From: Candidatus Omnitrophota bacterium
GTDB taxonomy: Bacteria > Omnitrophota > Gorgyraeia > Gorgyraeales > Gorgyraeaceae
Assembly: GCA_018819285.1 (NCBI GenBank)
Contig: JAHJQM010000029.1
Location: 280-64,279, forward strand
Direction of reading: 5' to 3'
DNA: 64,000 bases
Below are positions 1 through 55,722 of this stretch, one piece after another; the stretch's first letter is position 1; every line of letters starts with the position of its first letter. The notes beneath the pieces were generated by a model that worked only from the letters and a program-made list of their open reading frames with translations, was not told the origin of the DNA and did no database searches. Made by a program: the position numbers and the translations under genes.

Positions 1-3000
1 ATAAGTATCTTTACTTAGCGTGTAAGTCTTGCTTGTAGCGCTTGCCTTATTTATTCTTGTCCCTTGGACATATGCAGTGCCTAAGGATATATCGCTTGTG
101 AGATTGGCTGATGTTGCAGGCTGTAATCCAGTTTCCACATATTCTGCGAAGTTTTCATAAAATCTTGTGGATGGAGAGATTACCAGTTGAGAATCGAGTA
201 TGCCCGCAGTTGCTGAAATATCAGCTGTTGTAATAGTGCCATCCGTTATCTCGGCTGATTCTATTGTCTGGCCTAATTTAGTAACAGTTGCTGATAAGGC
301 TGTATCTGCGACTTTACCTGCTGTTGCGATCTGGGACAGCTTTGTATCCGCAATGGCTGCATTTGCGTTGATATCCGCATCTACGATAGTGCCGTCACTG
401 ATCTCTCCTGATTCTATGGTTGCGCCTAAGGGTGTATTCGCAGTAGGAATTACACCTGCGCCTACAGGGATATTAGCAAGGTTTGTCAAGCTAGCACCAG
501 AAACTTTACCTGCTGTAGCAATCTGGCTAAGCTCTGAATCCGGCAAGGTTGTGGCTAAATCTAAAGAATTAGCATAGACATCCCCTTCTGAATCAACTGA
601 GAAGTTTGTCGCGCCTGCGCCTGTGGCCTGCATGTCAAAGAGTTTTGTATTAGCAACTGGGCTGGAAGAAGGTTTTATTAGTACAGGCGAAGCAACAGTA
701 TCTGTAAAGGTATTGGTTGAATTCTTCAGGACAACATTGCTAGAAAGCGCTGAGTCAGAAACCTTGCCTGCTGTTGCGATAGTAGCTAATTTTGTGTCAA
801 CTATACCTGCGTCGGCTGCCACTTCAGTATTTGTAATTGCCAGGTTAAGTTTTGACTGGGCTATTGCTGCGGTGTTAGAAACATCTGCATCTACAATTGT
901 TCCATCCAGAATCTTCGCTGATGTTATTGACGAATCAGCAATCTGGCCTCCTCCAATAGAACCAGCTTTTACCGCTAATTTATTTGAGACAATCCCAATA
1001 GTAGCGTCATCATAATCCACTGACATGCCATTTGCGCCTTTAGTAATACCCTGATTAGCGCTAAGTTTTACATCTAAGGCATTATCAGTAATTGCAAGCC
1101 CTGGATTTGTTGCAGCAAGATTTACCTGAATACCTGAATTATTTGTAATCGCACCTGCTGCATTAAGCTGCACTGCTGTACCAGCGACTTTATTGGCTGT
1201 TGTAATCTGATTTAACGAACTGTCAGATATGCCCTGAATAGTATTATTTGCGCCGTTGATAGTTTTATTAGTGAGTATCTGGCTGCCTGCCAAAGTAGCA
1301 ACAACAGTATTATCTACGCTTATTATTGTACCGCTATTTGTAAGGCCTGTGCCCCATGTATAAGCTGTGGCGCCTGAAAATGCGACCCAGCTTGCGCCAT
1401 TATAAACATAGCCTGCATTATCTGCCCTGTTAAATACTGCATAGCTTTGCAGGGGCGCTGTGAAATCCCATGTTGAACCATTATAAACAGCAATTTTGTT
1501 ATCTTGTCCGTTCCATACGTCTATACCAGTTGACTTAACTATGTATCTCGCTCCATTTGCAGGGCTTGCCGGAGGAGTTGTTTGTATCGCTATTACAGGA
1601 TCTTTCCAGTGAAGACCTGCTATAGCGTTATCAACATATGTCTTGTTAGCTGCATCACCGCCTTGATTAGGGACGCCCAAATCTGTTACCTTATTGCCTC
1701 CCATCTGAATATCCGCAGCCATGATGCCAAGGGTTGTATCTGTTCCCTGGGTATGACTTTTTGTTATAGCGTCATTTATATTTGCGCTGTCTAATAATTT
1801 TGAGGTCTGAATCCCTGCTGTTCCAGAAACCATTGCATCTGTAAGGCCGCCAACCGGGATAATGCCTGCTGTACCAGCGCCTGCTGTAGGTAAATCAGTC
1901 GCTGAATGGCTATGCGAAAAATTGGCTGCGCCTATATCACCGGCTGATAAATTATTAGCGCCTATTTTATATTTTGCGCCGCCTGGGATATTGACGCCTG
2001 CAAAAGTATCTGTTGCGCCAGCCTGCCCTGCAATATTTAAATAATTGCCGGTGGTATCATAAGTGATGTTAACATTGCCGGAACCTCCGCCACCTATGAT
2101 ATAGCCTGATCCCTGCGCTGGTTCTGTTACGCCTCCTGTCAAGCCTGTATTAACTCCAAATGTAGCGTTTGAAGTGCCGCTCGTGGATGTAGGGCCAATC
2201 AGATTTGCTGCGGTCAATGTGCCTGCAATATTCACACTACTAGAGAAGTCAAATTGATTAAGGGTCTTGTTCCATTTGAGAAATTTATCATTAGGGGATA
2301 CCCCATTCCCAAAACTCAGCTTAATATCATTATCAGCAGGGCTTAAAATAGACGCTATTGCAAAATCTTGAGAAGTTGTGCCAGGCGCGCCCAATAACCC
2401 TCCGTCTTCATCATTTCCGTGATGATGGGGCGCGATATTTCCAACGATAGTTGGAGACGCAAAAAATCTCCAGCGTTCATATTGAAACACGTCTCCTGTG
2501 GCAGGAAATTTAATATCTATGCCTATATCCTGGCCGGTTGAAGATATCAGTGAAACTGTTGAACCCCTGCTCATATCCTGTCCCCAGTTGCCATACCAGT
2601 TATAAGTACCGGCAGTAGCAGAATTGGGATTCCACATAATGCTCCATCCGAATTTCGTAGGAGGAAGAATAGGATTGCCTTCATTATCAAACGTGACTTC
2701 TGTCCAGATTTCAACATTCTGCGCAGAAGAAAATAGCGCAGAGCTCAATTCTCCGCTCATCGTAATATTAAGAGTGCCCTGATTGTTTGGATCGCGCATA
2801 GGAGGCGAGATATAAGCCTTTGATCTTTGCCCTATAATTTCTGAAAGTTTGATTATACCTGTGTTTGAATCCACAAAAGTCAATTCACCTGTCACGGGAT
2901 CTTTGAATATACGAGCCTCGCTGGGTTTATATGACGCCTCCTTATTGAAACTGTTATAGGTGGACTGTTCAGGAGACATGCCATATGCCTTAAATTCCCA

Positions 3001-6000
3001 CTGGTCTCCGCCTTTAAACCCTGTAGTATCGCTAAATCTTATCTTTATGCCAAAATTCAGATCAGTATCATTTGCGGAGATTGTCAGTCCTGGGCTAGCA
3101 GGATACCATGTTTCAGTCCATGGCTGCCAGGAAGTAGAAGCCCATTCATTCATAGGGTCAATACATTCCACATAACGATATTTAATGTAAGGCGATGGGG
3201 TGTCATAAGCACCCATGACTCTTACCTGGAATTTTCTCATAACCCTTTCTACGTAGTTTCCGCTCACATCCATCTTTACAGAGCCTGGATTAAGCGGAGC
3301 TGCTTGGGTAGAATGAATATTGATAAAGTCGTATGGCACTCGGTCAACTGTGCCGCTTCCGCCTGCTGTTCCGCTCATGCCAGGATCTTCTGAAAAGAAA
3401 TCTATACCTCTTGTCCTTACAAACTGATCAACTGAAAGAATTCCGCCTCTGCCATCAGCAGAACGGCCGATTTTCATTGTTCCATATATTGACTGATCTC
3501 CTGTATCAATTATTGAAGTTGGAGAATATTTCGGCAAAACTTTTCCTTCTACTAATTGCACAGCGTCAAACCGCGCAAACTCAGTATCATTAGCACCGCT
3601 GGTCTGCTGGCAAAGTAAAAAGATATCGACATCTGAACCAATGCCATCTGTTTTAAAAGAACCTTTATTTTCAACAAAAGTAGAGCTCGAACTTACCAAT
3701 GGTTTAAACGTACCTCTTACAACTGCATTATTTGCATGGTTGGCAGCTGTAGTATTATTAATACCTCGCATAACGTTTGTAAATGAGATATCTGTTTTTC
3801 CTGTGTAATTAAATAATTCATCGTCTATTAATATTGTGCCACCTTGGGGAAAATTTGAAGTGCTTGTCACTAAGATAGTAGCTGTAGAGCTCCCGTCCAA
3901 AGTAGCGCTTGCGCTTACTCCTGATGTTATAGTTGTGCTTGGCACATAGTGGCCTGAGATATCAAGTATTGCCTTTGTAGTAACAGGATTAGTGCTCATT
4001 AAAGCAGCGCCTATAGAATACCATGTATTTGGTTCAAGGCCTGTCATTGTCTGTTTTATGCCTGCGTCATTACCGCTACCAGGCGCCCCTATTAAATAAT
4101 TTAAACCTCTTTTACCAACCCATTCATTTATTGCAACTGCGGATTTACCGTCAAAAAAGTCTGTGTTAAATGTTCCTGTATTGCCGGTTCCTGTCTTAAA
4201 AAGAGCTGGGGAGTGCTGGGCAATCTTTCCTTCTACCCATATCCATTCATCAGGCGCAAAGTTACTCCATCCGCCCCTATACCCTGTAGTAGTGTCATTA
4301 TAAACTCCTGTCTGAGCATAAGATGGGTCATATCCTGCAAATTTTTCAAACCCGGAAAACGCCTCAAATGAACCATTTTTTATTGCATTTCTAAAATCAT
4401 GCGCGAGCCTTCCGCCTGCTTCTATCTGAAATACTGCATCGCCTACTGTCGGGTCATATATATTAAAAGAACCATCTGAAGAGATATCAAAAAGCGCTTT
4501 TTCGTATTTAGCGAAGTCAACGCCTGGCTGAGGAATACTGACCACGCTGAATTTTTGTTTAGAGTAGCTGGCATCGTTCAATACATCAGGATCTAATTTA
4601 ATCGCATAATACTGGTTATATCTTCCTGTATTTACATCCCTATTCACTCCAAAGTTTAAATATGCAGGAGATGCGGTTGGTATGACTGCCTGGTCTGAAA
4701 AAATAAATGCGCCTAAACCATCTGTCCCTGCGTCTGTATCATACCAGAGGTACTGATAATTACCCTCGTTGATACCAAGCTTTAGGACGCCGTCTGAATC
4801 AGAATCTGCGCCGCCGCCTAGCTTAGCAGTATTTGTAGCTATTGCAAGCGATGCGCTTGCATTTGATTGTGTAATGGATGAAAGCGCGTCTCCGCCGCTT
4901 GTATCGATCTGCACATCGCCATCTGCTTCTACTGTCAGATGCGAAAGCGCTGTAGAATCTTGGATCTCGAGAAGGTTTGCGGTCTGTCCTCCCATGCCTT
5001 TTAAAATTAAAGGCGTTGCTGTGGTGTCAGCTGCTGTGATAGTCTGGGTTGATGCAGGAGCGAGCACGGGCACGCCTGTTAATACGAAATCTAATTTGCC
5101 TCCGGCATCATCATAAGTCACGTCAATATTAGTTTCAGTATTGCCAGTTACCATGCCTCCCGCGTAATCTTCAACCTGTTCCTGGTTAAGCACAGTATCT
5201 ACGTACGAAGAAGTTATTGTTATTGTATTTGCTCCATCATCTGGCGTAATAGTAACATTTGGACCTGCTACCAGGTCTATGTTCCCGCCGTCATTTGTAA
5301 CGCTATTTATGGAAGACACGACATTTACATTTAAATCAGCTGCTGTCAAAGAGTCGTTTACCACGGAAGCAGAGTTCACTGAAGCAGTACTTACAAGGCC
5401 TACGTTATCCACGCTAAATTTGGATGAGCCTCCTACCTGAAGGTCTAAAAGTTTATTGCCTGCTCCTGGCGCTGAGGTTTCTGTAACGTTTAATTTTATA
5501 CCTGTGTAATCGCCTGAAGTGGCTTTATTAATCGTAGCTGCTAAATCATACGCCGATTCATCCCCTGTTGCGGCCGAACGCGTTACTGTCGAAGTTACGC
5601 CATAGCCTGATGCTGGAGACAGGTCAAGGTTTATACCACTTGTAACAATACTTGTACCTGCAGTGCTTAAAGTTATATCCCCTGTCACTGTCCCGCCTGC
5701 CAATGGCAGATAATTTGATGCGGTAATATCATTTGCCACTTCATCATCAGCCCATGGATGAGCTGTATTATCCCAGTCTCCTGTAATAGTTTCCGTGGAA
5801 TTTAGTTTCGGAATATTTGATGAATCTGAAAGATCGCTTGAAGCTATTTGAGAACCGTTGATTTTATAGTTTGCGCCTGCAGGAATATTTATGCCGCCAG
5901 TGACCCCTGCTATATCCAGATTACTTGTACCAGAATTAACTTTGATAGTAACGTCGCTGCCTGTGCCGCCTTCAATAACAAGGCCTGCTCCGTTTGCAGC

Positions 6001-8076
6001 AGCTAAACCAGCATTGTCTGAGTCTATCGTAAATGTAAGATTTGTAGTAGAGACTTCATCGCCTGAAGCGCTTGAGGCAAAAGTTATAGTATTGGCAGTG
6101 TCATTTGGCGTAATTGTCATATTTGCGCCTTCCACAAAATCTATATCACCACCGTCATTGGTTACGCCGTCTATTGAAGAAACTACATTGCCTGAAAGCG
6201 TCCCCACTGCATGGGTATGAAGGCTATCAGCGTTGGAAACAGCGCCTGCTGTAAGCGTAGTAAGATTAGCAGCTGTAACTCCTGCGCCTGCGCTGGCTAG
6301 TTTATTCAGTTCGGCTGCTGTTGAAGTAACCTGCGTATCGCCTATATAAAAAGTTGTGGTATTTATAGCGCCAGAAACATTAAGTTTATACGTATCTGTT
6401 GTAGTTGTGCCTATCCCTACGTTATCTGTAATGGTCAAGAGATATATTCCTGTGCCGCCATCTGTCCAGCCACCTGCTGTTGCTGGCGTAACATTATCCG
6501 CGTATGCCTTTGTTACTGCATGACTAGCAGCAGTAGGGGTTGCTACTGATACTGTGCCTGCGAATGACGCGTTCCCTGAATTATCTACATAGAAGGCTTG
6601 TGTTGTACCGTCTAGGCCTGCATACGCGTCTATCAGGTAATTATCTCCTGTTGGAAGGCTTGTTTCTGTGGCTTGAATTTTTAGAGCAGTGTAAGAACCA
6701 GTTTTTGTAGCGCCTGTATAATTTACAGTTGGAGCAACATTTAAACCAATCGCAGTGGTTGTTGAATTTATTCCGCCATCTTGAAATGTTGGCTGAATAC
6801 TGGCTAAAGTTGGTGTTCCTGACGTGGAAGAATCTGTCTTTGAGACAGCAAAATTATCTGCAACAGTTAATACGCCTGTAGAATTAGAAACATTCCCTTT
6901 TAAGTCAGAAGCGCCTGTTACAGTAAGGCTGGCTAAAGTTGTATCGCCTAAAGACGTAGTGCCGCTTGAAGAGATATCCCCATAGATAGTACCGTCAACT
7001 TCTAAATCGCCCTGCACATACAGTTCCCCTGTAGAAAGCGCATATGCATTTGATGCCTCGCTCGCGCCTATTATTACTCTCTGACCTGCAAATTGCGCAG
7101 CAGGGCCTGTGGACGCCTGGTTTATATCCAGGGCGGCTGATGTGCCTGAATAATCCAAGTCAATATTTGAATTCATGTCGAGAGCGCTATTCAACATAGC
7201 TGCGCCGCTAACTGTTAAAGCGCCTGTTACATCCAAGCCATTGTTTGCGTCTACATTACCTCCGAATGTAACCTGGTTACTAGCGCCGATCTGAGTCAAC
7301 GCATCTGCTATAGTAACTGCTCCGCTTGAATTAGAAATATTTCCGCGTAAATCAGAAGTGTTTGTTACTACAATGCTTGAAAACGTGCTGTTGCCGCCGG
7401 TAGAAGCAATTGTGCCATAGATAGTCCCTGCAACTGTTAAATCATTTGACATGTTAACATTTCCAGTATCATTATCGACCAGCAAAAAGTTAGTTGTGCC
7501 GTCTGTGATTTTAAAATCGCCTGAAGTGGAATCAATAGTTATGACTACATCCCCTGTTCCTGTAGGATTTACTTCTATGTTTTGATTCGGCCCTCCTGTA
7601 AGAGACAATGCGCCTGTTGGAGCGCTGGCCAAAAAATCAGACGCGTCATAGCCATCCAGCTTATCTGCGTTTATAGCATACGCTACTGATGTAAGCCGCT
7701 GTCTGGGCGTCATTTCGCCATCTGACTCTACTTCCACAGAATACCAGTAAGGCGCATTAAAATCCAAGCTATCCAATACCTCGCTATTTCCAAGTAATAT
7801 ACTGAATATACCCCTGGTAACAGTAGCCGATTGAGTCTCTGTCCATAGCTTAATACCGCCTGATTCTGCGTCATATATCCTGATAGTGATACTAACATCA
7901 CCTGTGACAGGATCATCATTGGCATCTGTGAGCTTGCCTTGATAATTAATAAACCTGGGTATTTGAGCTTGCGCCCCAGGCGGCGCAATCGCTATAAACG
8001 ATAACATAAAGATCAGCACCAAAATATGCCAAAATCTCATTCCTCTTAAAATCCTTTTCATTGTCATGGTAATCAT
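1..8076 (-). CDS. giant secreted repeat protein, N-terminal >=2,690 codons (3' end runs off the window start)
   Basis: Own minus-strand translation. AGGAGG (rc of 8085-8090) lies 8 nt upstream of ATG at 8076. N-terminus MITMTMKRILRGMRFWHILVLIFMLSFIAIAPPGAQA is signal-peptide-like, followed by QIPRFINYQGKLTDANDDPVTGDVSITIRIYDAESGGIKLWTETQ. Spot checks keep the frame open: 4020-3961 gives YSIGAALMSTNPVTTKAILD, 1020-961 gives VDYDDATIGIVSNKLAVKAG, 60-1 gives TRINKASATSKTYTLSKDTY. It is absent from the ORF track presumably because no stop falls inside the window. Plus-strand ORFs 200..6220 are low-complexity antisense shadows. Confidence 0.75.
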   Translation of the reverse strand, partial: MITMTMKRILRGMRFWHILVLIFMLSFIAIAPPGAQAQIPRFINYQGKLTDANDDPVTGDVSITIRIYDAESGGIKLWTETQSATVTRGIFSILLGNSEVLDSLDFNAPYWYSVEVESDGEMTPRQRLTSVAYAINADKLDGYDASDFLASAPTGALSLTGGPNQNIEVNPTGTGDVVITIDSTSGDFKITDGTTNFLLVDNDTGNVNMSNDLTVAGTIYGTIASTGGNSTFSSIVVTNTSDLRGNISNSSGAVTIADALTQIGASNQVTFGGNVDANNGLDVTGALTVSGAAMLNSALDMNSNIDLDYSGTSAALDINQASTGPAAQFAGQRVIIGASEASNAYALSTGELYVQGDLEVDGTIYGDISSSGTTSLGDTTLASLTVTGASDLKGNVSNSTGVLTVADNFAVSKTDSSTSGTPTLASIQPTFQDGGINSTTTAIGLNVAPTVNYTGATKTGSYTALKIQATETSLPTGDNYLIDAYAGLDGTTQAFYVDNSGNASFAGTVSVATPTAASHAVTKAYADNVTPATAGGWTDGGTGIYLLTITDNVGIGTTTTDTYKLNVSGAINTTTFYIGDTQVTSTAAELNKLASAGAGVTAANLTTLTAGAVSNADSLHTHAVGTLSGNVVSSIDGVTNDGGDIDFVEGANMTITPNDTANTITFASSASGDEVSTTNLTFTIDSDNAGLAAANGAGLVIEGGTGSDVTIKVNSGTSNLDIAGVTGGINIPAGANYKINGSQIASSDLSDSSNIPKLNSTETITGDWDNTAHPWADDEVANDITASNYLPLAGGTVTGDITLSTAGTSIVTSGINLDLSPASGYGVTSTVTRSAATGDESAYDLAATINKATSGDYTGIKLNVTETSAPGAGNKLLDLQVGGSSKFSVDNVGLVSTASVNSASVVNDSLTAADLNVNVVSSINSVTNDGGNIDLVAGPNVTITPDDGANTITITSSYVDTVLNQEQVEDYAGGMVTGNTETNIDVTYDDAGGKLDFVLTGVPVLAPASTQTITAADTTATPLILKGMGGQTANLLEIQDSTALSHLTVEADGDVQIDTSGGDALSSITQSNASASLAIATNTAKLGGGADSDSDGVLKLGINEGNYQYLWYDTDAGTDGLGAFIFSDQAVIPTASPAYLNFGVNRDVNTGRYNQYYAIKLDPDVLNDASYSKQKFSVVSIPQPGVDFAKYEKALFDISSDGSFNIYDPTVGDAVFQIEAGGRLAHDFRNAIKNGSFEAFSGFEKFAGYDPSYAQTGVYNDTTTGYRGGWSNFAPDEWIWVEGKIAQHSPALFKTGTGNTGTFNTDFFDGKSAVAINEWVGKRGLNYLIGAPGSGNDAGIKQTMTGLEPNTWYSIGAALMSTNPVTTKAILDISGHYVPSTTITSGVSASATLDGSSTATILVTSTSNFPQGGTILIDDELFNYTGKTDISFTNVMRGINNTTAANHANNAVVRGTFKPLVSSSSTFVENKGSFKTDGIGSDVDIFLLCQQTSGANDTEFARFDAVQLVEGKVLPKYSPTSIIDTGDQSIYGTMKIGRSADGRGGILSVDQFVRTRGIDFFSEDPGMSGTAGGSGTVDRVPYDFINIHSTQAAPLNPGSVKMDVSGNYVERVMRKFQVRVMGAYDTPSPYIKYRYVECIDPMNEWASTSWQPWTETWYPASPGLTISANDTDLNFGIKIRFSDTTGFKGGDQWEFKAYGMSPEQSTYNSFNKEASYKPSEARIFKDPVTGELTFVDSNTGIIKLSEIIGQRSKAYISPPMRDPNNQGTLNITMSGELSSALFSSAQNVEIWTEVTFDNEGNPILPPTKFGWSIMWNPNSATAGTYNWYGNWGQDMSRGSTVSLISSTGQDIGIDIKFPATGDVFQYERWRFFASPTIVGNIAPHHHGNDEDGGLLGAPGTTSQDFAIASILSPADNDIKLSFGNGVSPNDKFLKWNKTLNQFDFSSSVNIAGTLTAANLIGPTSTSGTSNATFGVNTGLTGGVTEPAQGSGYIIGGGGSGNVNITYDTTGNYLNIAGQAGATDTFAGVNIPGGAKYKIGANNLSAGDIGAANFSHSHSATDLPTAGAGTAGIIPVGGLTDAMVSGTAGIQTSKLLDSANINDAITKSHTQGTDTTLGIMAADIQMGGNKVTDLGVPNQGGDAANKTYVDNAIAGLHWKDPVIAIQTTPPASPANGARYIVKSTGIDVWNGQDNKIAVYNGSTWDFTAPLQSYAVFNRADNAGYVYNGASWVAFSGATAYTWGTGLTNSGTIISVDNTVVATLAGSQILTNKTINGANNTIQGISDSSLNQITTANKVAGTAVQLNAAGAITNNSGIQVNLAATNPGLAITDNALDVKLSANQGITKGANGMSVDYDDATIGIVSNKLAVKAGSIGGGQIADSSITSAKILDGTIVDADVSNTAAIAQSKLNLAITNTEVAADAGIVDTKLATIATAGKVSDSALSSNVVLKNSTNTFTDTVASPVLIKPSSSPVANTKLFDMQATGAGATNFSVDSEGDVYANSLDLATTLPDSELSQIATAGKVSGASLTNLANIPVGAGVIPTANTPLGATIESGEISDGTIVDADINANAAIADTKLSQIATAGKVADTALSATVTKLGQTIESAEITDGTITTADISATAGILDSQLVISPSTRFYENFAEYVETGLQPATSANLTSDISLGTAYVQGTRINKASATSKTYTLSKDTY

Positions 8077-8084
8077 TTTAACCG

Positions 8085-8100
8085 CCTCCTTTTTAGGAGG
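8085..8100 (-). promoter_or_regulatory. SD/anti-SD hairpin (CCUCCU-AAAA-AGGAGG) at the RBS of the giant gene
   Basis: The plus strand reads cctcctttttaggagg. On the mRNA this is CCUCCUAAAAAGGAGG immediately followed by CGGUUAAA-AUG, so the SD could be sequestered in a 6-bp stem. Confidence 0.4.
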
Positions 8101-8148
8101 TAACTGCAGAGCTCGCTCCATATAGAGCAAGCGCTGTAGTTACACCCG

Positions 8149-8763
8149 TCAAAGCTCTTTGCTATTTTTCTCTTCACCTGTCTTTCCACTGGAAAGCACA
8201 GGAATATTTCCAGGAATAACCTTCCATTTCTTGCTCATCATTTCACCGTTACTTACAGGAGTAGCAGAGCGAACGCCAGTAAACTCCGCGCCAGAATTCG
8301 ATATCAATTTTGCAACCTGTTTTATATTTTTATTATTCGTATAAACCACAAATATAGCAGTTACCAAAACAAATACGGAAATAAAAGATAAAACCGCAAG
8401 GTCATATCTAAATCTCTTAGGTGCGCCAGAAGGAATACTGGCAACCTCGGCATCAATATTGTTCGAGCGGTCAGGAGAGTATGCTGCGGAAGCAGAGTCG
8501 AGAACCTTCTGTCCTAGTATTATCTTTTCCAATTCTTCCAGCCCTTCAAAATTTTTATTCAACTTGTAATATTTTAAATTGGCCTCTTCTTCAGTAATCA
8601 AAATTCCAATATTAGTTAATTTCATAAGCTGCCTTCTCAGTGGGCTTAATGATTCCTCTAATAATCTTTCTAGCTCTCTTAGATAATATCTATCATCTAT
8701 ATTAGAGAGAAATAATTTGAGAATTTTCAATCTGGTCTTTGAATTTACCAATTTCTCAATCAT
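8149..8763 (-). CDS. membrane-anchored winged-HTH transcriptional regulator (ArsR/PadR-like N-terminus, one TM helix, C-terminal extracytoplasmic tail)
   Basis: 204-aa ORF. The N-terminus KTRLKILKLFLSNIDDRYYLRELERLL...RRQLMKLTNIGIL resembles a wHTH. The hydrophobic segment LAVLSFISVFVLVTAIFVVY is a likely TM helix. SD AAGGAGGG precedes the ATG at 8763. It lies directly upstream of, and co-directional with, the giant gene. Confidence 0.55.
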   Translation of the reverse strand: MIEKLVNSKTRLKILKLFLSNIDDRYYLRELERLLEESLSPLRRQLMKLTNIGILITEEEANLKYYKLNKNFEGLEELEKIILGQKVLDSASAAYSPDRSNNIDAEVASIPSGAPKRFRYDLAVLSFISVFVLVTAIFVVYTNNKNIKQVAKLISNSGAEFTGVRSATPVSNGEMMSKKWKVIPGNIPVLSSGKTGEEKNSKEL

Positions 8764-8892
8764 TTCTCCCTCCTTTCCGCCTGAAACATCTGTGCCCTTT
8801 TAGGGCACATTTAAGACAACAAGAAAATCGCCTTCGGCGATGACCTTCTGCGATTTTCAGTGGTTGGGAAAGTGTTTTATACTTTCCCAACC

Positions 8893-8929
8893 ATAAAAAA
8901 AGCTCATTTTTCCATCGAAAAATGAGCTA
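8893..8929 (-). terminator. candidate intrinsic terminator (11-bp stem AGCTCATTTTT/AAAAATGAGCT followed by a U tract on the minus strand)
   Basis: Plus strand 8901-8929 reads agctcatttttccatcgaaaaatgagct and is preceded by aaaaaa at 8895-8900. On the minus strand this is a hairpin followed by UUUUUU. The stem is AT-rich, so strength is uncertain. Confidence 0.35.
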
Positions 8930-9225
8930 CTTTAAAACCTTTTATCTTATCCTTTTGGCAGCTGACAACCATGAGTCCCTCCGGACTATTAGGCTCTAAA
9001 GCTTTGCGCCCCATTCTTTCGAATGGTTTACCCTTATCAATGAGATTTTTTTTATTCCAACTTCTCTCTCTACTCAAAAGTATACCACATATTAGACCTC
9101 TAGTCAAGATGTGTCCCCTCTCGAGTGAAAAAATACCTTTTTAAACGACTTTAACTAGTTTCAAGTATACCACCTCAAAAAATACTTGTCAATATATTGT
9201 GGATATTTTTTCTTAACCCACTATA

Positions 9226-9255
9226 AGTATAATACATTTCAATATGTTGTGTCAA
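9226..9255 (-). promoter_or_regulatory. candidate sigma70-like promoter (TTGACA-18-TATACT) on the minus strand
   Basis: The minus strand reads TTGACAcaacatattgaaatgtatTATACT. It could drive a roughly 330-nt unit that ends at the 8893-8929 terminator and contains the 67-aa ORF 8904..9107. Confidence 0.35.
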
Positions 9256-10426: not shown

Positions 10427-13400
10427 TTATACTATGGCTCTTAAGAAAGCTATAAGAAATTTCAGAGAGACTCGTATAAATAATTTAACAAGGGGCTTAT
10501 CTTTTATTAATTCTGCTATTGGCGGGCTAAAACGGTAATAGAGATTAACGAATTCTTTACCCAGTTTTGATTTTAATAGGCACTGATCTCTGAATTCGCG
10601 CAAGGCTACCACTTCTTTAGCATCAGTAGAGCCAAATGCTGCGGTAGCGATGAAACAACTACCGCCGCCACCGCCACTACTATCTTGCTGTCCAGGATTC
10701 TCAGGCTGAGCAACATTTTCATTATTTTTTTCAGCGCCTGCGATTCCGAATATAGTAAAATGGCTTGTCTTTACTGTAACTATATTTTCTTTTGGAAATA
10801 CAAAACTGCCTGAAAGAATTTTCCATTCAACATTTTTTTCATCATACCAGTATACCTCCAAGGTTAACTCATCAATATTTTTATCATCTACAATACCATC
10901 TCCGTTTTCGTCAATATATGGTATAGATATAATCATTTCCTTATTAAAAGGGCCTTTGTGGTTTTCAAATTGATATTCCCGGTATTCTCCTATAGGCTTA
11001 TTTTGGTTAATATTGATTTCTCTCTGAATCTGGCTTGATTCCAATCTTTTTATATTAACAATGTCATCTTGCTCCAATATATCTGCCGGCATAACTAAAG
11101 ATGTTTTATCTGATAATTCTATTCTGCCTATTTTATACTTATATACATTATTTGGCGAGACGATTGGCTTTTTATCATTATTTTTTCCATTTGAAACATA
11201 GATAGTTTCTTGGCACGACATAATAACACGGCCTATTGTCCTGACATCAAGATTTGTCATGTAGGTTCCTGAATCATTATATGTAAATTCCGCCTGAGGA
11301 ACCAGAGTTACGAGGTCAATTATCCCATCATTGTCAAAATCCCATAAATATTCCACATCGCTTATTTCATCTTCAATTTCAAAGGAAAATCTTACTGCAA
11401 GGGGTGCATTGCCCTTTTGCGGATTGATAATAATTTTGCCTTTTTTAATATCCTCTGGATCAAAAATCCCGAATCTAATTTCTGATTTGGCCTGGTTGGA
11501 TAAATTGTTTGAGTCTGTAACGCGTACAGTAGGCGTGTAAACGCCTGGCTCGCAATAAGTGTGTTTAATTATGCCAGGGCTTAATGAAGTATAATCGAAT
11601 ACGCCATCGCCTTCAAAATCCCATTGATATTTTTGGATTAAATTGCTGCTATTTACAGCAGCTTCAAAATTTATTTCCAGAGGGACATTTCCTGTAACAG
11701 GCGATACTGAGGAACTAACGCTCAAAACTTTAGGGTCTTCTATCTCAATTAAAGCCTTCTCTGAGCCAGTTAATCCGTCAAAGCTGGTAACCCTGAACTC
11801 CGCATTATATTTTCCTGGAAGGGCATAGGTTTTAACAACCTCCCCTGATTCAGATGAATTAGCTTCAAAAACGCCGTCACCATCGAAATCCCATTCATAT
11901 TTCGATACGCCTTGAGGGCAAAATGCATCGCCTTTAAAAAATACCTTGCAAGGCGCAACGCCTTCTAAAGGAAACGCATTTAAATAGACGCCTGGCGCGT
12001 CAGGATTTTTAGCTACATTAATAGTAACTGTATAGGTATTCGTGATTCCGTTTTTATCTGTTACGCGTAACTTTGCAGGAAAGCTGCCTTCGCCTGTATA
12101 TATAAAAACAACCTCCCCTGATTCAGGCGAACTGAAATCATATATGCCTTTGCCATCAAAATCCCATTCGTATTTAACTATTCTTTTGAACTTACTGATA
12201 GCTTCTGACTTAAAATGCACTTCGAGCGGGGCCATGCCATTTAAAGGTTCAGCCAGCGACTTTGCTTCCAAGATTATAGGCAAAGAATCGGAAACTATTA
12301 TTTTAACTTTTTCTGAGGCCTTGACTTTGCCATCGCTGACAATAAATGTTACAAAATATTCTCCTGTTTGATTTTCTACCGGCTTCCAGAAAAATCTTTT
12401 TACCCATGGATCAAAACTGGCTCCGCGAGGAAGCGTTTCTGCAGAATAAATAAGCAAATCTCCGTCTATATCAACGGCTTCAACAAAAAATTCTAAACTA
12501 TCTCCTGCTATTATTTCTTTTTCGCCTATAGTAAATAAAACGGGCTCGTGATTTTTCTTTGGAATTTCTTTTTCGCCCACGTCAAAAAATATTGAACCCT
12601 GGCCGATCTCTCCAAATTTATACATAACCCTGTAAATCCCATGCCTGTCTAATTCAGGAGAGACTATTTTTTCGAATTTATTGACGCCTTTTTGCAGATT
12701 TACGTCTTCTTCAATGATATTCACGGCATCTGAATCCGGCTTTATTAAATACGCGCTTAACTTGATAGAACATGCTTCGCCTGATTCAATCTTCCAATTA
12801 AGAGCCACGTTTTCGCCGTCTTCGTAAATATCCTTATCGCATCCCGCTTTAATGATTTTAATGGAAGATGTTTCCGGCTTTTCCCCGTTTATTAAATAAG
12901 AATTTAAATAAAGGGATTTTCCGGATTCAAAATATATCCCATAATAAATTTTCTCATTGTCGTTCAGGCCGGGGATATTGAATTCGAGATCCTTTTCTTC
13001 ATTCAGGACAAAATCTATCTTCTTTTCATAATCACTGCATCTGGCCTCTGCAAAAAGCTTCAAGCCCTTCGCTGAGCTTAAATTTTTAACATTGAGCTTA
13101 AAGATACCGGCCTCTGCCTCAGCCTCAGCTTCAACCTTTACGCCTATTATTTTAAAATTTACCTTATGCGTCTCGTCTTTAAATTTATACTCTGCTTCAT
13201 AATTCCCTTCATCCGCATCTTCCGGGATTAAAAATTCGAACGCTATTTCTTTATCCTTGCCAGATCCTAATAATTCTGATCGCGTTTCATTGATTAGATC
13301 CTGGGATTTAAAATTTACTTCGCATTTTCCCTGCGCCTCGCCTTCATTTATAATCCTAAATCTAAATTTGGCTTTTTCTCCTGCGTTAAAACTAAGGCCT

Positions 13401-16400
13401 TCGTCTTCCAAATAGAAAACCTTAAAAATTGGCGCGCTAATTTTTTCGCCTATATAAAAGGCTTTTACGAACTTAACTGTTTCCTGAAAAATAGGGGATT
13501 TTAATGTTGCCTCTATGTAATATTTTCCTTTTCCCGCAATAGCCGGAATTTCAAAATTAATCACTGATTCATTTTCTATATTAGAAATTTCCTCGCGCTT
13601 TTGAAAGCATGCAAAATCGCTGCCAGAATATTCATCGCCAGAAGTATAAACTGCGAGAAGCTTATATCTTAAAAAAGAACTCTCGCTATTATATCTGTCG
13701 TAGACCTGGATATAATAATTAGACGGGTTAGCGGTTTCAAATTCCATTGTAACATCTTCGCCTGAGGCGCCGCCTTTTATGTCAATGTTCTGGCCAGACT
13801 CTTTATAAAGTTTCATATAAGGCCTTACATTGACCGGCATGTCTTTTAAATAAACAGTTATTTTGCCGGCGTCTGGTATAGATAATTTATAAAAATCGGA
13901 ATCTGCTTTGGTCGCAACTGTGGCAAAGTAATTTTTACCAAAATCAATAAGCCTTGCAGCCTCTTTTGTTTCATTGGGCTCGTATTCATCCAGGGTTTTT
14001 ATAAAATTAAAATTCAGGGAGTAGCTATTTAGCGAAGAGACATTTCCATACCAGTCTCTTACTAAAAGATAATAAAGGCCGGGTTTGTCAAATTCTGTCT
14101 CAAGGATTACATTTTCATTGGCTGAGCCGCCTTTCATTGAGATTACTTTGCCTGATGTATCATAAATTTTTATAGAAGGCCTCAGGCCTTGCGGCACTTC
14201 GTACATTTTTATATATAAAACGCCCTTTTCCTGGATATTGAATTTAAAAAAGTCTTCATCTCCGGTACTATAGATTTTACCGTGTATTCTTGAATCCACA
14301 TCTATCTCGTTTGCGTTTGTAAAAGCGCTGTTAGGCTCTATCTCCTCAGAATCCTGATATATAGCCGGGTCCAATGTATCATTAAAAATATTTTCGCCTT
14401 CGTTTATCTGTATATTTTTTGATATATTGCCAGGCGACGCAGTTAAAAGATAATTTCCAACAGGCACATAGATAAATTTAAACAGGCTATCGCCTGAAGT
14501 TACGGCAAATCTAGTTGAGGTATTCGAACTGGCAACGTTCACAGGTTCCAGCGTAATGGTCGAACCTATTGAATTTTCAATAACGCCTGACAGATTTCCA
14601 TATTTTGACGGCGTTAAATTTATATCCAGATTGTTGTCTCCTGGAAAAATTTCAATATCTTTTGAAACAGTGTCGAAAGCCGGGGCTTTTATACTGATAA
14701 CTCTATGACCTTTATCAAGGCCTTTTAACCTGTATTTGCCGTCTTTATTTGTATAAATGCCTTCTATTATGGCGCCTTTTATAACAGCGCCGTTATCATC
14801 TCTTACTGTCCCATATAAATCCCATGAATTCAATTCCGGAAAAACTCTAATATCAAGATAACCTTTTTCTATTATTTCTCCGATATTTTTAATTTTAACG
14901 CTCGCAGATATAAGCTGATTCTTCGGATAATTATTTTCCATATTTACAATTAAATCCACGTTCAGGCCAGGGATACTGTAAGATTCTGTAGCGATTTCTG
15001 TATCTTCGCCATCACTTAAAGGCTTTGGGCCTTCGAAACATATGCTTTTAAATCCAATAAGCCTGGAATTCGAAAATGTGCTAAGTTTAGCTTTGCATGT
15101 TCCTCTTGAAATATCCTCTGGTATAGCGAAACTCTGAGGCCAGGACCCGGAGCCAAGCTCTGCTAATTTGATCTCCGAGGAACAATAATAAATTTGTTTG
15201 TTGCTAGAGTCGGTTATATCCAGGATGGTCAGGATATTAAGCGAGACGCTGGTTTTATTTTTAAAATTTACGTTTATTGAGGCTATTTCGCCAGGCAAAT
15301 ACTGCTCTTTATCACTAGACATATCTATATCCAAGCTTGGCTCAAAGACATTAATGCCCCGCTCTGCCTTGCCTATAAAAACATTCTGCGAAGAATAAAA
15401 ATAAGAACTCAACAGGTCTGTTGAGCTAGCGATTATTTCCTTATCGAATGAAATTGTTTTGCCGGCAGGAACTACGACTATGTCATTATATTCTATTTTA
15501 TGATGCGGGAGTATTGCTTTATATTTTATCGACTCATCCCTGGCAGTATTATTTCTCATGTGAAATGTAAACGTGGCAACGTTGCCAGAGATATAATTTT
15601 CACTGTCGCTTGTTATGTCAAAGGTAAAATCCGGGTTTTGTGAAGCGTCTGGCGGTGGCTTGGCAAAAGAAAAATAAATTCCTTCTGCTTGAGGCTGGAT
15701 GGCTTTAGAATCAATGTCGTAAAGAATGTAGTCCACAGAATAGATTCCTGGTTTTTCCAGGGCCTGGCCTAACTTATACGCCGCTTCGTTTGAAATATTC
15801 CTCTCTAAAACCTCACCTTCAGGCGACTTTAATATCATTTCTATCTTGTTAAAATCAAGGTTTGTCTGTATTGGGATTTCAAAACTCTCGCCAGTTTTAT
15901 ATTCTGGCAAGTTTTTGCCGGACTTTGCCCATCGAAGGAGATCTCTTACGAGATTAATCTCTGAAGAACTTGCCTGGCCATTTAAATAGCCCCAGTCTGA
16001 ATACATAGAAGCTACTATGACGACGCCTTTTCCGAAATTATACAAAAGCATTGCAGGCATCTGGTTTTTTGACCTTCTAAGTAAAATTGCGGCGCCATCC
16101 GGATAATCCGTAAAATATCCGTCCAGTTTTATATCAGGGTATAATTCATTTTGCGAACTAAGTACCTGGTGGAAATTTTCAATATAGGCGGCTTTTGTAT
16201 GACAGGACGCATCTTCCTGCCAGCCGTATGCATTTAGTCTTTCTCCTGGAAGGGCGTTAAAATCATAGCCATATTGCTGGGAAAAACATATAATAGCGCC
16301 TCCATTTTTTACATACTCTGAAAGTTTATTTTTGAATATCGCTGAATGCGAAAGGCCTGAAAGCCCGCCCGTAGGAATTACCAGGACCTTTTGTTCGTCA

Positions 16401-17821
16401 AGTATATAAGGCTCGAACGTATGGTCTATAATCCTGACCGGCTCTCCGACTTTTTCTATTATTAACTTTCTCATCTCATTGTAATAACCATTTGCCAATA
16501 CAGCTATATCAGGAGATTCAAGGTATTCCCTGGACGCATATATATAATAATCATGGAGAAGTTTATTTTTCTGGCCCAGGGCTTCTTCCCATTCATTGAT
16601 AATATTATCTACGTTAGCGCCTGTTGAAATTTCCAATTGAGCGTCTTCAAATAGAGTTAATATTTCCCAGTATTTCATTAGATATGCCTTATTTTTCCTG
16701 ACCGCAATCCTGAGATATAAATCAAAAAGCTTCCTGGGGCTCATATCTATGCCTTTGGCAAAATCTACTGTATCGAATGTATCATCAGGATGGTCTATGC
16801 CAGGGCCTGATAAAAATGCCAACTGTTTATTCTTATAAGGCTTCAACCTCTTGAAAAAAATGCTTTCTCCGCCTTTTTCCAGTTTATCAAGCATGACTGC
16901 TAAAACTGTTTCACTATTGCAGAAATTAAAATGATTCACGCCCAAAAAATACTCATACCCTATGTCTTCTCTTTTTTCTATAACAGGGCTCCAGTCGCCT
17001 ACTATCAAGTCTTCGCTGCCGATTGCAATAAATGTCTTTATGCGCTTATCAGGCCCAAGATCCTGTATGCTTTTTAAGAACATGCTGTCCGGAGATAGTT
17101 CTTTTCTCAAGGCTTCGGATTCCATGCGGCTGCCAGGTATCCATATTTTATTATCAGCTACTTCCAATGCATATTGGCAGGCAGTCATGCTCTGGGCAAA
17201 AACCGATGGAATTACGCCCAGGATATTTTTGATATTTGCTACAAGGCTTGTAGAGCCGTTGTTGGGCGGGGCAAGTTCTATTATTGTCTCTATATTGTCT
17301 CTATAAGGGACTAAACCGAGCGAGCGCGAATACGCTGTTACCGCAAGACCTCCTGTAGAGTGGGTTATTACATCTGCCTTTTTATAATTTCTATCCGGGA
17401 GATTCTTATTTAGATAATCTATCCCTTCTTTTAACGCTACGCCTACATCATCGCCTAAATCCCTTACACCATAACCCCATGAATTGCCAATCATAGGCGC
17501 GTCTATCTTATGATCTCCATTTGTATCAACCGCATTTCCGCGCATATCAACGACAATTACATCGTAGCCGCGCTCAGTTAATTTTTTTACATAATTCTTA
17601 TTCTTATCACTCCAAACTTCTCCGCTAGAGTTAAAGCCGTGGACTAATAATATAGGCCTTTCTTTAATATCATTTGCAGCGTTTTCGTAACAATAAAAAT
17701 TTATTTTTGCGCCTTTGGTGCTCTCAACAGTAAAAGGCTTGGCAGGCTCATCCAATGCAAAAATATTATTTGCAAAAAAGATGAAAAATATGCCTGATAT
17801 TAAATGAATGATCAGCTTCAT
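10427..17821 (-). CDS. giant (2,464 aa) secreted multidomain protein with lipase/esterase, GATase1/ThuA-like, CARDB/Ig-like, four PPC, carboxypeptidase-regulatory-like and four PKD domains, and a C-terminal CFI-box-like putative sorting domain
   Basis: Signal peptide MKLIIHLISGIFFIFFANNIFA. Lipase-like nucleophile VITHSTGG around aa 155 (compare B. subtilis LipA AHSMGG). VLVIPTGG...GGAIICF matches a GATase1/ThuA-like domain. Repeated ...DxDFYKL / DEDFFKF PPC-like modules. An EAEAEAEA linker. Four PKD signatures: YEWDFDGKG, YEWDFDGDG, YQWDFEGDG, YLWDFDNDG. C-terminus is GGGGGSCFIATAAFGS...REFRD...YYRFSPPIAELI, read at 10621-10680. Confidence 0.85.
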   Translation of the reverse strand: MKLIIHLISGIFFIFFANNIFALDEPAKPFTVESTKGAKINFYCYENAANDIKERPILLVHGFNSSGEVWSDKNKNYVKKLTERGYDVIVVDMRGNAVDTNGDHKIDAPMIGNSWGYGVRDLGDDVGVALKEGIDYLNKNLPDRNYKKADVITHSTGGLAVTAYSRSLGLVPYRDNIETIIELAPPNNGSTSLVANIKNILGVIPSVFAQSMTACQYALEVADNKIWIPGSRMESEALRKELSPDSMFLKSIQDLGPDKRIKTFIAIGSEDLIVGDWSPVIEKREDIGYEYFLGVNHFNFCNSETVLAVMLDKLEKGGESIFFKRLKPYKNKQLAFLSGPGIDHPDDTFDTVDFAKGIDMSPRKLFDLYLRIAVRKNKAYLMKYWEILTLFEDAQLEISTGANVDNIINEWEEALGQKNKLLHDYYIYASREYLESPDIAVLANGYYNEMRKLIIEKVGEPVRIIDHTFEPYILDEQKVLVIPTGGLSGLSHSAIFKNKLSEYVKNGGAIICFSQQYGYDFNALPGERLNAYGWQEDASCHTKAAYIENFHQVLSSQNELYPDIKLDGYFTDYPDGAAILLRRSKNQMPAMLLYNFGKGVVIVASMYSDWGYLNGQASSSEINLVRDLLRWAKSGKNLPEYKTGESFEIPIQTNLDFNKIEMILKSPEGEVLERNISNEAAYKLGQALEKPGIYSVDYILYDIDSKAIQPQAEGIYFSFAKPPPDASQNPDFTFDITSDSENYISGNVATFTFHMRNNTARDESIKYKAILPHHKIEYNDIVVVPAGKTISFDKEIIASSTDLLSSYFYSSQNVFIGKAERGINVFEPSLDIDMSSDKEQYLPGEIASINVNFKNKTSVSLNILTILDITDSSNKQIYYCSSEIKLAELGSGSWPQSFAIPEDISRGTCKAKLSTFSNSRLIGFKSICFEGPKPLSDGEDTEIATESYSIPGLNVDLIVNMENNYPKNQLISASVKIKNIGEIIEKGYLDIRVFPELNSWDLYGTVRDDNGAVIKGAIIEGIYTNKDGKYRLKGLDKGHRVISIKAPAFDTVSKDIEIFPGDNNLDINLTPSKYGNLSGVIENSIGSTITLEPVNVASSNTSTRFAVTSGDSLFKFIYVPVGNYLLTASPGNISKNIQINEGENIFNDTLDPAIYQDSEEIEPNSAFTNANEIDVDSRIHGKIYSTGDEDFFKFNIQEKGVLYIKMYEVPQGLRPSIKIYDTSGKVISMKGGSANENVILETEFDKPGLYYLLVRDWYGNVSSLNSYSLNFNFIKTLDEYEPNETKEAARLIDFGKNYFATVATKADSDFYKLSIPDAGKITVYLKDMPVNVRPYMKLYKESGQNIDIKGGASGEDVTMEFETANPSNYYIQVYDRYNSESSFLRYKLLAVYTSGDEYSGSDFACFQKREEISNIENESVINFEIPAIAGKGKYYIEATLKSPIFQETVKFVKAFYIGEKISAPIFKVFYLEDEGLSFNAGEKAKFRFRIINEGEAQGKCEVNFKSQDLINETRSELLGSGKDKEIAFEFLIPEDADEGNYEAEYKFKDETHKVNFKIIGVKVEAEAEAEAGIFKLNVKNLSSAKGLKLFAEARCSDYEKKIDFVLNEEKDLEFNIPGLNDNEKIYYGIYFESGKSLYLNSYLINGEKPETSSIKIIKAGCDKDIYEDGENVALNWKIESGEACSIKLSAYLIKPDSDAVNIIEEDVNLQKGVNKFEKIVSPELDRHGIYRVMYKFGEIGQGSIFFDVGEKEIPKKNHEPVLFTIGEKEIIAGDSLEFFVEAVDIDGDLLIYSAETLPRGASFDPWVKRFFWKPVENQTGEYFVTFIVSDGKVKASEKVKIIVSDSLPIILEAKSLAEPLNGMAPLEVHFKSEAISKFKRIVKYEWDFDGKGIYDFSSPESGEVVFIYTGEGSFPAKLRVTDKNGITNTYTVTINVAKNPDAPGVYLNAFPLEGVAPCKVFFKGDAFCPQGVSKYEWDFDGDGVFEANSSESGEVVKTYALPGKYNAEFRVTSFDGLTGSEKALIEIEDPKVLSVSSSVSPVTGNVPLEINFEAAVNSSNLIQKYQWDFEGDGVFDYTSLSPGIIKHTYCEPGVYTPTVRVTDSNNLSNQAKSEIRFGIFDPEDIKKGKIIINPQKGNAPLAVRFSFEIEDEISDVEYLWDFDNDGIIDLVTLVPQAEFTYNDSGTYMTNLDVRTIGRVIMSCQETIYVSNGKNNDKKPIVSPNNVYKYKIGRIELSDKTSLVMPADILEQDDIVNIKRLESSQIQREININQNKPIGEYREYQFENHKGPFNKEMIISIPYIDENGDGIVDDKNIDELTLEVYWYDEKNVEWKILSGSFVFPKENIVTVKTSHFTIFGIAGAEKNNENVAQPENPGQQDSSGGGGGSCFIATAAFGSTDAKEVVALREFRDQCLLKSKLGKEFVNLYYRFSPPIAELIKDKPLVKLFIRVSLKFLIAFLRAIV

Positions 17822-18896: not shown

Positions 18897-19013
18897 CATA
18901 AAATTACCTTTCATTATAAATAGACAGAGTGATAGAGTGAATAAAAATAAGGTCATATAATAATGTCTATTGGACACACTGTTATGATATGTTAAAAAAT
19001 ATGGCCGGCTTCT

Positions 19014-19938: not shown

Positions 19939-19960
19939 AATACACCTCCTCTGGTTAAAC

Positions 19961-54343: not shown

Positions 54344-54360
54344 TTTTCTCCCTTCAAGAT

Positions 54361-55692: not shown

Positions 55693-55722
55693 ACAACTAT
55701 AAAAACTACAATGCTGAAATGT

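Follow-up and report, generated by a model that had tools for sequence, protein, structure and literature searches.

The window analysed here is a 64,000-nt stretch of contig JAHJQM010000029.1 (assembly GCA_018819285.1) from a Candidatus Omnitrophota bacterium. Its first 9,255 nt carry, on the minus strand, a leader with a predicted class I riboswitch for c-di-GMP (cyclic diguanosine monophosphate), a small gene for a winged-helix-like membrane protein, and a giant open reading frame (ORF) that is cut by the window start. A sequence-only reading of the window had described the giant ORF over positions 1–8,076; the riboswitch and the small winged-helix/transmembrane (TM) gene, which lie just outside that interval and form the most informative feature of the locus, had been missed. 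The elements of the region are, in their order along the minus strand:

9079..9255, minus strand: three tandem sigma-70-like promoter matches (TTGACA or TTGACT, N17-18, TATACT; 11/12, 11/12 and 10/12 positions)
8954..9042, minus strand: c-di-GMP-I (GEMM-I) aptamer (RF01051, 71.2 bits against a cut-off of 35, E 5.7e-12, model positions 1-87 of 87)
8894..8928, minus strand: intrinsic terminator, a 12-bp stem followed by a seven-U run (terminator call; 25 nt past the aptamer)
8791..8809, minus strand: palindrome TGTGCCCTAAAAGGGCACA, between the terminator and the ribosome-binding site of the small ORF (motif search in leaders)
8149..8763, minus strand: 204-aa ORF with a winged-helix-like N-terminus and one TM segment at ~aa 118-144 (homologues, hydrophobicity)
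8077..8148, minus strand: intercistronic stem-loop and a CCUCC-N5-GGAGG hairpin over the Shine-Dalgarno sequence of the giant gene (fold -34.7 kcal/mol, z = -4.3)
1..8076, minus strand: giant ORF, 2,692 codons, 5' end complete and 3' end cut (stop-free translation, coding-type codon bias)

The giant gene

Six-frame translation gave no in-frame stop in the 2,692 codons from 8076 to 1 on the minus strand, so the frame is open to the window edge as had been claimed. The other five frames of this 8-kb stretch contained 82–229 stops each, with a longest open run of 152 codons, and the probability of 2,692 stop-free codons under the strand's own base composition was ~10^-72.6. GC contents at codon positions 1, 2 and 3 were 0.49, 0.49 and 0.33, a typical coding pattern, and a GGAGG is found 8 nt upstream of the ATG at 8076. 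The ORF does not appear in the program-made ORF list, which shows only short plus-strand ORFs over this region, because that list omits ORFs running off an end. A protein from an Omnitrophota metagenome-assembled genome (P0001, NCBI name 'DUF2793 domain-containing protein') was 67% identical over the full query length. The giant gene is real; an artefact or a non-coding low-complexity ORF was ruled out by the stop-codon statistics together with conservation across genomes. The predicted protein is rich in Thr, Gly, Ala and Ser and has two cysteines. Its closest relatives occur in ultra-small Omnitrophota, in agreement with the earlier suggestion of kinship with large proteins of uncultivated small-genome bacteria.

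Conservation of the cassette

Cassette loci were collected through giant-protein homologues (eight loci) and, independently, through the small ORF in species-representative genomes (11 loci), which with the window makes 20. The order aptamer, small ORF, giant ORF, the last with its signal peptide and IPRYINYQGKLTDA, was found in 20/20, and the three-part cassette is invariant among these related genomes. An intact class I aptamer (RF01051) was present in 17 of the 20, scoring 65.9–77.5 bits except in L006 (40.6 bits), where an insertion of ~68 nt splits the Rfam match (1539..1703) into two weaker ones; this aptamer may be a natural insertion variant of GEMM-I. In L005 the RF01051 match (41.7 bits) has lost its 5' end at the contig end. 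The synteny of a giant gene with PKD domains, rluD, riboswitch, small ORF and giant gene recurs on other contigs.

A model built from the cassette aptamers had exactly one match in each of the 20 loci, whereas 17 unrelated loci and the rest of the window gave no match. In the alignment, which was fitted to the model and is thereby favoured towards pairing, 98.5% of cells were paired and compensatory double changes occurred in 10 of 21 pairs; these values were reached by 0/500 shuffles, and slid controls were far lower. The window aptamer has the GAAA loop (a GNRA tetraloop), and its cmscan alignment contains the G that precedes the GU/GC pair, along with the first A in GCAAAGC and the second C in GCUGCC, positions that we take to be equivalent to the G20, A47 and C92 ligand contacts of Vc2. 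By its family match and pairing pattern, this is a genuine GEMM-I aptamer, maintained by selection on its structure.

Leader architecture and predicted switching

Downstream of the aptamer, a hairpin and U-run equivalent to the window's terminator recur in related leaders with compensatory stem changes. Upstream, the promoter matches of the window are ~63–85 nt apart, and most related loci have two or three likewise placed copies of TTGAC-N17-20-TAYACT.

The palindrome was detected in 15 of 19 leaders by a regular expression allowing shortened arms, and 13 had the full TGTGCCC-N5-GGGCACA form. It is degenerate in L016 and L018 and absent from two distant loci with a variant aptamer, L008 and L009. 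The arms are nearly invariant and the central TAAAA/TTTTA alone flips. It could be an RNA element or an operator, perhaps one bound by the winged-helix protein encoded next to it. The window leader also has two extra hairpins that lie past the main terminator and ahead of the palindrome (8827..8841 and 8862..8892, minus strand), one of them terminator-like (ATCGCCGAAGGCGAT with a T-rich tail); most relatives are without them.

Constrained folds gave different pictures of how ligand binding might reach the terminator. When the 3' half of the terminator was blocked in L002 and L003, its 5' half paired with the first hairpin of the aptamer, which would imply an OFF switch. In L007 the 5' half paired upstream of the aptamer, which stayed folded, and in the window and L004 it was a spacer segment that paired, its partner being the second hairpin's 5' strand, without preventing formation of the terminator. 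Committing to an ON or OFF direction was rejected.

The small gene and the intercistronic gap

In every Omnitrophota locus examined, the giant gene is immediately preceded by the 204-aa ORF, whose identity ranges over 24–73%; the best relative (73%) is from Omnitrophota UBA10183. A conserved motif near the C-terminus reads EM.S.KWK..PGN.PVLSSGE. Helix-turn-helix (HTH) matches were weak (ArsR HTH_5, GntR and similar), with no significant HTH family. Relatives in other phyla (L024-L039) share the winged helix only and have neither the aptamer nor a giant partner; they were not counted as cassette members. The winged-helix-like N-terminus, single TM segment and short extracytoplasmic tail resemble those of ToxR and CadC regulators, a likeness that is architectural only; no match to an OmpR/ToxR-type family was significant. 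By this analogy the membrane protein might, speculatively, be a ToxR-like feedback regulator acting at the palindrome.

The 72-nt gap that separates the two genes contains no called terminator or promoter, and the hairpin is without a U-run. At this position most related loci form a long hairpin too, though its sequence is unrelated, and in L008 and L009 the two genes overlap. The stem-loop may serve in processing, in stability or as a translational gate.

Predicted export and the N-terminal module

Within the giant protein, the following segments were delimited, from the N-terminus to the window edge:

7966..8076, minus strand: signal peptide, aa 1-37 (read from sequence; sole Kyte-Doolittle peak; 51 homologues alike)
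7672..7965, minus strand: N-terminal beta-sandwich domain, ~aa 38-135, with the motif IPRFINYQGKLTD...EMTPRQRL.SVAYA (structure model)
6187..8076, minus strand: conserved N-terminal module, aa 1 to ~630 (conservation in Omnitrophota homologues)
2647..4491, minus strand: second conserved module, aa 1196-1810 (aligns with 16 homologues, 70 invariant columns)
1183..1833, minus strand: phage-tail-fibre-related module, aa 2082-2298 (PHROG and tblastn matches)
1384..1584, minus strand: DUF2793 (PF10983), aa 2165-2231 (51 bits with the whole protein, 55.9 bits with the segment, cut-off 27)
1003..1173, minus strand: adenovirus-fibre-shaft-like repeat, aa 2302-2358 (PF06536, 28.9 bits with the segment against a cut-off of 22.7)
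1..999, minus strand: C-terminal ~60-aa tandem repeats, aa 2360-2692, ...ITSAKILDGTIVDADVSNTAAIAQSKL... (internal repeats; cut by the window edge)

The N-terminus reads MITMTMKRILRGMRFWHILVLIFMLSFIAIAPPGAQA up to the predicted cleavage site and QIPRF after it, with a basic n-region (K7/R8/R11/R14), a hydrophobic core and an AxA site (AQA before Q). A hydrophobicity scan found this segment to be the only hydrophobic 19-mer of the giant protein, with no second TM segment in its 2,692 aa, and the same layout recurs in 51 aligned homologues. By this layout, the giant protein carries a cleavable-type Sec signal peptide (signal peptidase I). The beta-sandwich that follows was modelled at a predicted local distance difference test (pLDDT) score of 93–98. 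Profile searches assigned it to no Pfam family in the Pfam copy used and to no sequence relative in the PDB. Its profile matched 92,276 cluster representatives at E<=1e-3, a count that may be inflated because the profile includes some Gly/Thr-rich fibre sequence. At E<=1e-30 it matched 17,093; almost all matches lay at the very N-terminus. The signal peptide and conserved N-terminal domain of the sequence-only reading were thus both borne out, by the tripartite layout and its recurrence in homologues and by the confident model and wide profile matches.

The conserved N-terminal module consists of the beta-sandwich followed by Gly/Thr/Ser/Asn-rich fibre-like repeats with internal duplications, among them a bactofilin-like beta-helix repeat at ~aa 349-381 (29.1 bits, Pfam search of the segment). 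Over the first ~600 aa, identity was 60–72% across ~17 Omnitrophota proteins; beyond that point, alignment was confined to subsets of homologues and the module order was changed. A Bacteroidota protein that has the N-terminal domain alone in common is encoded at a locus without riboswitch and without small ORF. The domain may be a general foundation for tail-fibre-like tips encoded by cells, as the short homologues described next hint. Its >90,000 cluster matches and its lack of a family in the Pfam copy used make it worth structural study.

Secreted proteins of only ~250–300 aa also begin with this domain (P0046, P0058, P0062, P0069 and P0070). Short proteins with this domain end in H-lectin/gp53-like domains or in an LPPYY..AFI motif, which we take to be phage-tail-collar-like. 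A further short homologue, P0051, had a weak 'Cap_depo' Pfam match.

Mosaic interior and phage-related modules

The second conserved module is marked by the motifs RN..KN.SFE.FS and DTGDQ.IYG..R.GR..D..GGIL.VD. Profile searches gave no Pfam match and no PDB relative for it. Its AlphaFold model had a pLDDT of 57, and with the better-modelled core of that model Foldseek retrieved carbohydrate-binding module (CBM) family 16 and other CBMs (probability 0.99–1.0, E ~1e-3 to 1e-2). The fold comparison makes a carbohydrate-binding-like jelly-roll possible. The paralogue P0003 has a CBM_4_9 domain (PF02018), in another module.

Towards the C-terminus come matches to phage proteins. The region aa 2082-2298 matched phrog_7049 'tail fiber protein' (1.7e-10) and showed ~30% identity to virion or tail-fibre proteins of 69 phages (tblastn); the adenovirus fibre repeat that follows (PF06536) reached 22 bits on the whole protein. 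The terminal repeats, aa 2360-2692, matched phrog_2012 'minor tail protein' (2.2e-11), phrog_13518 and phrog_35419 'tail fiber protein' (2.9e-4), and had 48–60% matches to a 1,072-aa cyanopodovirus protein that itself matches tail-fibre PHROGs. The tail-fibre-like character of the repeats, first noted in the sequence-only reading, is thereby supported, and extends to the DUF2793 region. Phage counterparts cover ~20% of the giant protein. Judged from these alignments, its interior is a mosaic that includes two modules common to phage tail fibres.

Other searches with the giant protein were negative. It had no match in NCBIfam and nothing meaningful in the PDB with phmmer on the whole protein. 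Catalytic families, whether glycoside hydrolases, lyases, peptidases or others, were not detected in the 2,692 aa (E<=0.01 for the whole protein, E<=0.5 for segments), and neither were families of the RTX/LapA type I secretion, trimeric autotransporter, LPXTG or type IX secretion types (Pfam, NCBIfam).

The missing C-terminal end

Extension beyond the window start did not reach the stop codon of the giant gene in any contig. The sole contig with an identical small ORF (ENA ERZ27247117, k141_38198) stops at about window position 70, and among the GTDB species representatives and in the metagenome scan no contig was found that extends this exact gene, only the mosaic relative L043. This metagenome sequence shares 81% identity with the final 136 aa of the window ORF and runs 331 aa past its end to a stop (...LTLKGNW). 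It matches the window protein at comparable identity nowhere else, which demonstrates recombinational mosaicism. P0001 is collinear in alignment with both the window ORF and L043; given the additional 331 aa of L043, the full protein is therefore probably ~3,020 aa long, with ~330 codons missing from the window and a full gene of ~9.1 kb. On the same alignments it probably ends in a ~220-aa tip, as is common to P0002, P0011, P0013, P0014, P0017 and others. In complete homologues no C-terminal hydrophobic or sorting segment was found; they end in a soluble beta-rich tip.

Nearly all contigs with a member of the family (L011-L023, L002 and the window) break inside the giant gene, including 11/11 of the new GTDB loci, which suggests assembly-breaking repeats or strain-level variation.

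Interpretation of the locus

The region 9255..1 on the minus strand is best explained as one c-di-GMP-gated operon for a mosaic adhesive fibre, a reading to which we give a probability of about 0.6; as far as sequence can tell, the fibre is probably switched by a second-messenger lifestyle signal. Transcription would start at the tandem promoters and run through the riboswitch and terminator into the small membrane winged-helix gene and then the giant gene. Occupancy of the leader by c-di-GMP would set read-through at the terminator and so would tie the making of both fibre and partner protein to the second-messenger state. The giant protein would be exported by Sec and would then form an elongated, probably oligomeric fibre; an oligomeric state would explain the low confidence of the monomer model outside the N-terminal domain. 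The conserved N-terminal module would lie at the cell-proximal end of the fibre, with the variable modules (possibly jelly-roll-like, DUF2793, tail-fibre repeats and tip) placed distally, where they would bind a glycan or surface of a host, a prey cell or a particle. The membrane winged-helix protein may be a ToxR-like co-regulator, possibly at the palindrome.

Several observations weigh against this interpretation. On the regulatory side, the terminator does not overlap the aptamer, and a clear anti-terminator is seen in some leaders only. Ligand specificity is inferred from the Rfam model and the conserved Vc2-type contact nucleotides, and the two most distant cassette members, L008 (5027..5101) and L009 (5202..5277), carry the c-di-GMP-I-GGC variant (RF03167, ~60 bits) in place of canonical class I. 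On the protein side, the giant gene is incomplete in the window, ~90% of its product is without a recognisable family, only the N-terminal domain is confident of the two structure models, and the carbohydrate-binding-like assignment is weak (E ~1e-3 on a pLDDT-57 model). In the window there is no outer-membrane anchor, sorting signal or dedicated secretion system; for this reason surface attachment rests on analogy, and the giant protein could equally be released. The label 'surface protein' that it had been given is putative, no anchor having been found.

A more specific version of the adhesive-fibre operon, which we hold only tentatively, is a dedicated c-di-GMP-gated device for capturing a host or prey. 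Its tail-fibre modules would be mounted on a conserved base, its mosaic tips would set partner specificity, and the co-transcribed ToxR-like protein would sense when the fibre is exported or engaged, with feedback via the palindrome. If true, attachment in Omnitrophota would have its first defined regulatory switch, and the combination of aptamer, small ORF and INYQG domain would be a marker for tracking it in metagenomes and metatranscriptomes. Unlikely, in our estimate, is a secreted tailspike-like effector that degrades polysaccharide or attacks cell walls, its modules targeting prey or host glycan for digestion. Giant proteins of Omnitrophota have been proposed to degrade prey cell walls (bioRxiv 10.1101/2023.11.21.568195), DUF2793 is sometimes found alongside tailspike peptidase domains (PMC5026251), and in relatives the gene adjoins a giant that contains Peptidase_S74; the weak carbohydrate-binding-like fold of the mid-module and the weak 'Cap_depo' match in a short protein sharing the N-terminal domain point the same way. 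However, no catalytic family was found in the 2,692 aa, of which ~90% are unannotated, and the PDB sequence searches were empty. Less probable still is a structural envelope component (S-layer, sheath or coat) whose abundance, rather than specific binding, is tuned by c-di-GMP. A large, exported, Thr/Gly/Ala/Ser-rich protein with only two cysteines would suit this role, giant proteins of Velamenicoccus have been proposed as a coat (PMC10066038), and the neighbouring giant ORF has a weak S-layer-family match. Yet the giant protein itself has no S-layer family, its homologous modules are of tail-fibre types, and shuffled distal modules on a conserved base are typical of receptor-binding fibres, not of lattice proteins.

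The operon itself could be questioned, if the riboswitch controlled the small winged-helix/TM gene only and the giant gene were expressed independently. The strong stem-loop between the genes would allow this, and the CCUCC/GGAGG hairpin could limit giant translation independently; but a hairpin without a U-run, the absence of a called promoter in the 72-nt gap, the overlap of the genes in distant relatives and a pair unseparated in 20 loci make such uncoupling improbable. The phage matches also raise the question of a tail fibre from a chromosomal prophage, a gene transfer agent or a tailocin, since DUF2793 occurs in the tail-fibre protein of the Rhodobacter capsulatus gene transfer agent (RcGTA) and in phage fibres (PMC5026251), and both phage virion proteins and PHROG tail families were matched. 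This origin is barely credible: the protein has an N-terminal Sec signal peptide and is only ~20% phage-like, the 64-kb window holds no capsid, terminase, baseplate, sheath or other phage genes, the housekeeping synteny is common to many genomes, and a riboswitch-plus-regulator operon is cellular in style. Prophage origin was rejected on gene context.

Comparison with known systems

The closest regulatory parallel is the Bc2 c-di-GMP-I riboswitch of Bacillus thuringiensis, a proven ON switch upstream of cap/cbpA, which encodes a collagen adhesion protein (PMC4933901; PMC7423583). In both cases a class I aptamer and an intrinsic terminator stand in the leader of a gene for a large exported adhesion-type protein, and regulation by transcription read-through, established for Bc2, is likewise proposed here. 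Unlike Bc2, the present locus belongs to a diderm phylum, has a membrane winged-helix gene between leader and giant gene, and encodes an unrelated protein with tail-fibre-like modules and no LPXTG or collagen-binding domains. In Clostridioides difficile, class I c-di-GMP riboswitches, mostly OFF switches, precede the gene for a putative adhesin that binds calcium (Cdi-1-2) and occur in the flgB leader (PMC6200980). There, too, GEMM-I aptamers accompany surface-structure genes, and the layout of aptamer, spacer and non-overlapping terminator resembles that of their OFF switches; the regulated proteins are not homologous, however, and the conserved tandem promoters and post-terminator palindrome are particular to the present leaders.

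Among proteins, the giant genes of Omnitrophota (Archaeovorin and Dockerin types) encode signal-peptide-bearing products for which cell adhesion has been proposed (bioRxiv 10.1101/2023.11.21.568195; PMC10066038; bioRxiv 10.64898/2026.06.07.730766), and pilZ genes and GGDEF domains noted near such genes hint at a c-di-GMP link (bioRxiv 10.1101/2023.11.21.568195; PMC10066038). The gene described here is from the same phylum and is likewise very long, poorly annotated and signal-peptide-bearing. It differs in size (8.1 kb present and ~9.1 kb inferred, against definitions of 20–25 kb), in having no TM bundle, dockerin, SecA or C39 domains, and in the lack of a locus like a type II secretion system (T2SS) upstream in the window; around the published giant genes, such a locus upstream and pilZ/transport genes downstream are conserved. 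Being too short and missing the hallmark domains and neighbours, it falls outside the published giant-gene classes, though biologically it belongs among the large adhesion-type proteins of the phylum. With the tail fibres of phages and RcGTA (PMC5026251; cyanopodovirus and actinophage repeats) it shares DUF2793 at ~30% identity, the C-terminal repeat family, and a mosaic build of conserved proximal end and exchangeable distal modules. In contrast to them, it is cell-encoded, has a Sec signal peptide, stands in no phage cluster, is 3–10 times longer and is mostly without a phage counterpart.

The text of these papers on Omnitrophota giant genes (10.1101/2023.11.21.568195, PMC10066038, 10.64898/2026.06.07.730766) mentions neither a riboswitch nor DUF2793, and a literature search joining riboswitch and Omnitroph returned unrelated work only. 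Within the limits of the literature searched, the cassette appears undescribed. A giant ORF alone is ordinary for the phylum; what gives the locus its value is that a c-di-GMP sensor is invariably linked to it, together with the mosaic of phage modules.

Omnitrophota are nanobacteria that are abundant and have not been cultivated; their presumed way of life is attachment to other cells or predation on them. To our knowledge, nothing is known about when their large suspected adhesion factors are made. The locus ties a conserved family of large, tail-fibre-like exported proteins to a second-messenger sensor in every genome examined, and makes the hypothesis that c-di-GMP level decides fibre production testable without cultivation. 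Mosaicism with phage-derived modules also offers a model for how partner specificity might diversify.

Genomic neighbourhood

The sizeable genes of the window are ordinary chromosomal ones and nearly all on the minus strand, the sole sizeable plus-strand gene being at 61092..61811. They include genes for an RluD-like pseudouridine synthase, isoleucyl-tRNA synthetase, FtsA, penicillin-binding protein/FtsW and the rest of a dcw-type cluster, as well as hom/thrC-type genes, gpsA, ribF, truB and tRNA-Pro. Upstream of the cassette are the rluD-like gene and a second giant gene with PKD domains, and no T2SS; T2SSE ATPases occur in L009. The second giant is:

10427..17821, minus strand: second giant ORF, 2,464 aa (7,395 nt) (domain matches)

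It has a signal-like N-terminus, an alpha/beta-hydrolase domain, CarboxypepD_reg, He_PIG and three PKD domains, a weak S-layer-family match, and at its C-terminus a CFI-box-CTERM sorting-type domain (NF041770, 89.8 bits) with a final hydrophobic segment. No mention of CFI-box-CTERM was found in the literature searched. The ORF is syntenic in L003, L004 and L007, lies upstream of rluD and is not behind the riboswitch. Its distance from the first giant, put at 2.3 kb in the sequence-only reading, is confirmed (2,351 nt); the estimate that the two genes fill ~28% of the window was too high, at 15,471 of 64,000 nt (24%).

Next to this surface-protein region, 18543..19962 on the minus strand holds an IS200-like ORF with a Y1 transposase domain (306 aa, C-terminal HTH) and a Cro/C1-type HTH ORF (162 aa); L009 has a Y1_Tnp gene just downstream of its giant gene. 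In relatives, further very large ORFs follow the giant gene (L005 12504..18438; L008 20098..25326; L004 14733..18673; L006 12754..17079), so that the window may be cut at the start of a larger surface-protein island. These downstream giants include a 1,361-aa Laminin_G_3 protein followed by an 8,691-aa protein, and a 3,588-aa protein, only partly covered by the locus sequence, with Peptidase_S74, an intramolecular chaperone domain of tail fibres.

At the other end of the window, 53303..64000 is occupied by a glycan-modification cluster with two NAD-dependent epimerase/dehydratases, a PglD-like acetyltransferase, GT2 and GT1-like glycosyltransferases, three methyltransferase domains and a B12-binding radical SAM enzyme; its products could act on surface structures. 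In the unrelated Syntrophales locus L026, a group II intron (RF02005, 131.6 bits) is present at 1954..4172.

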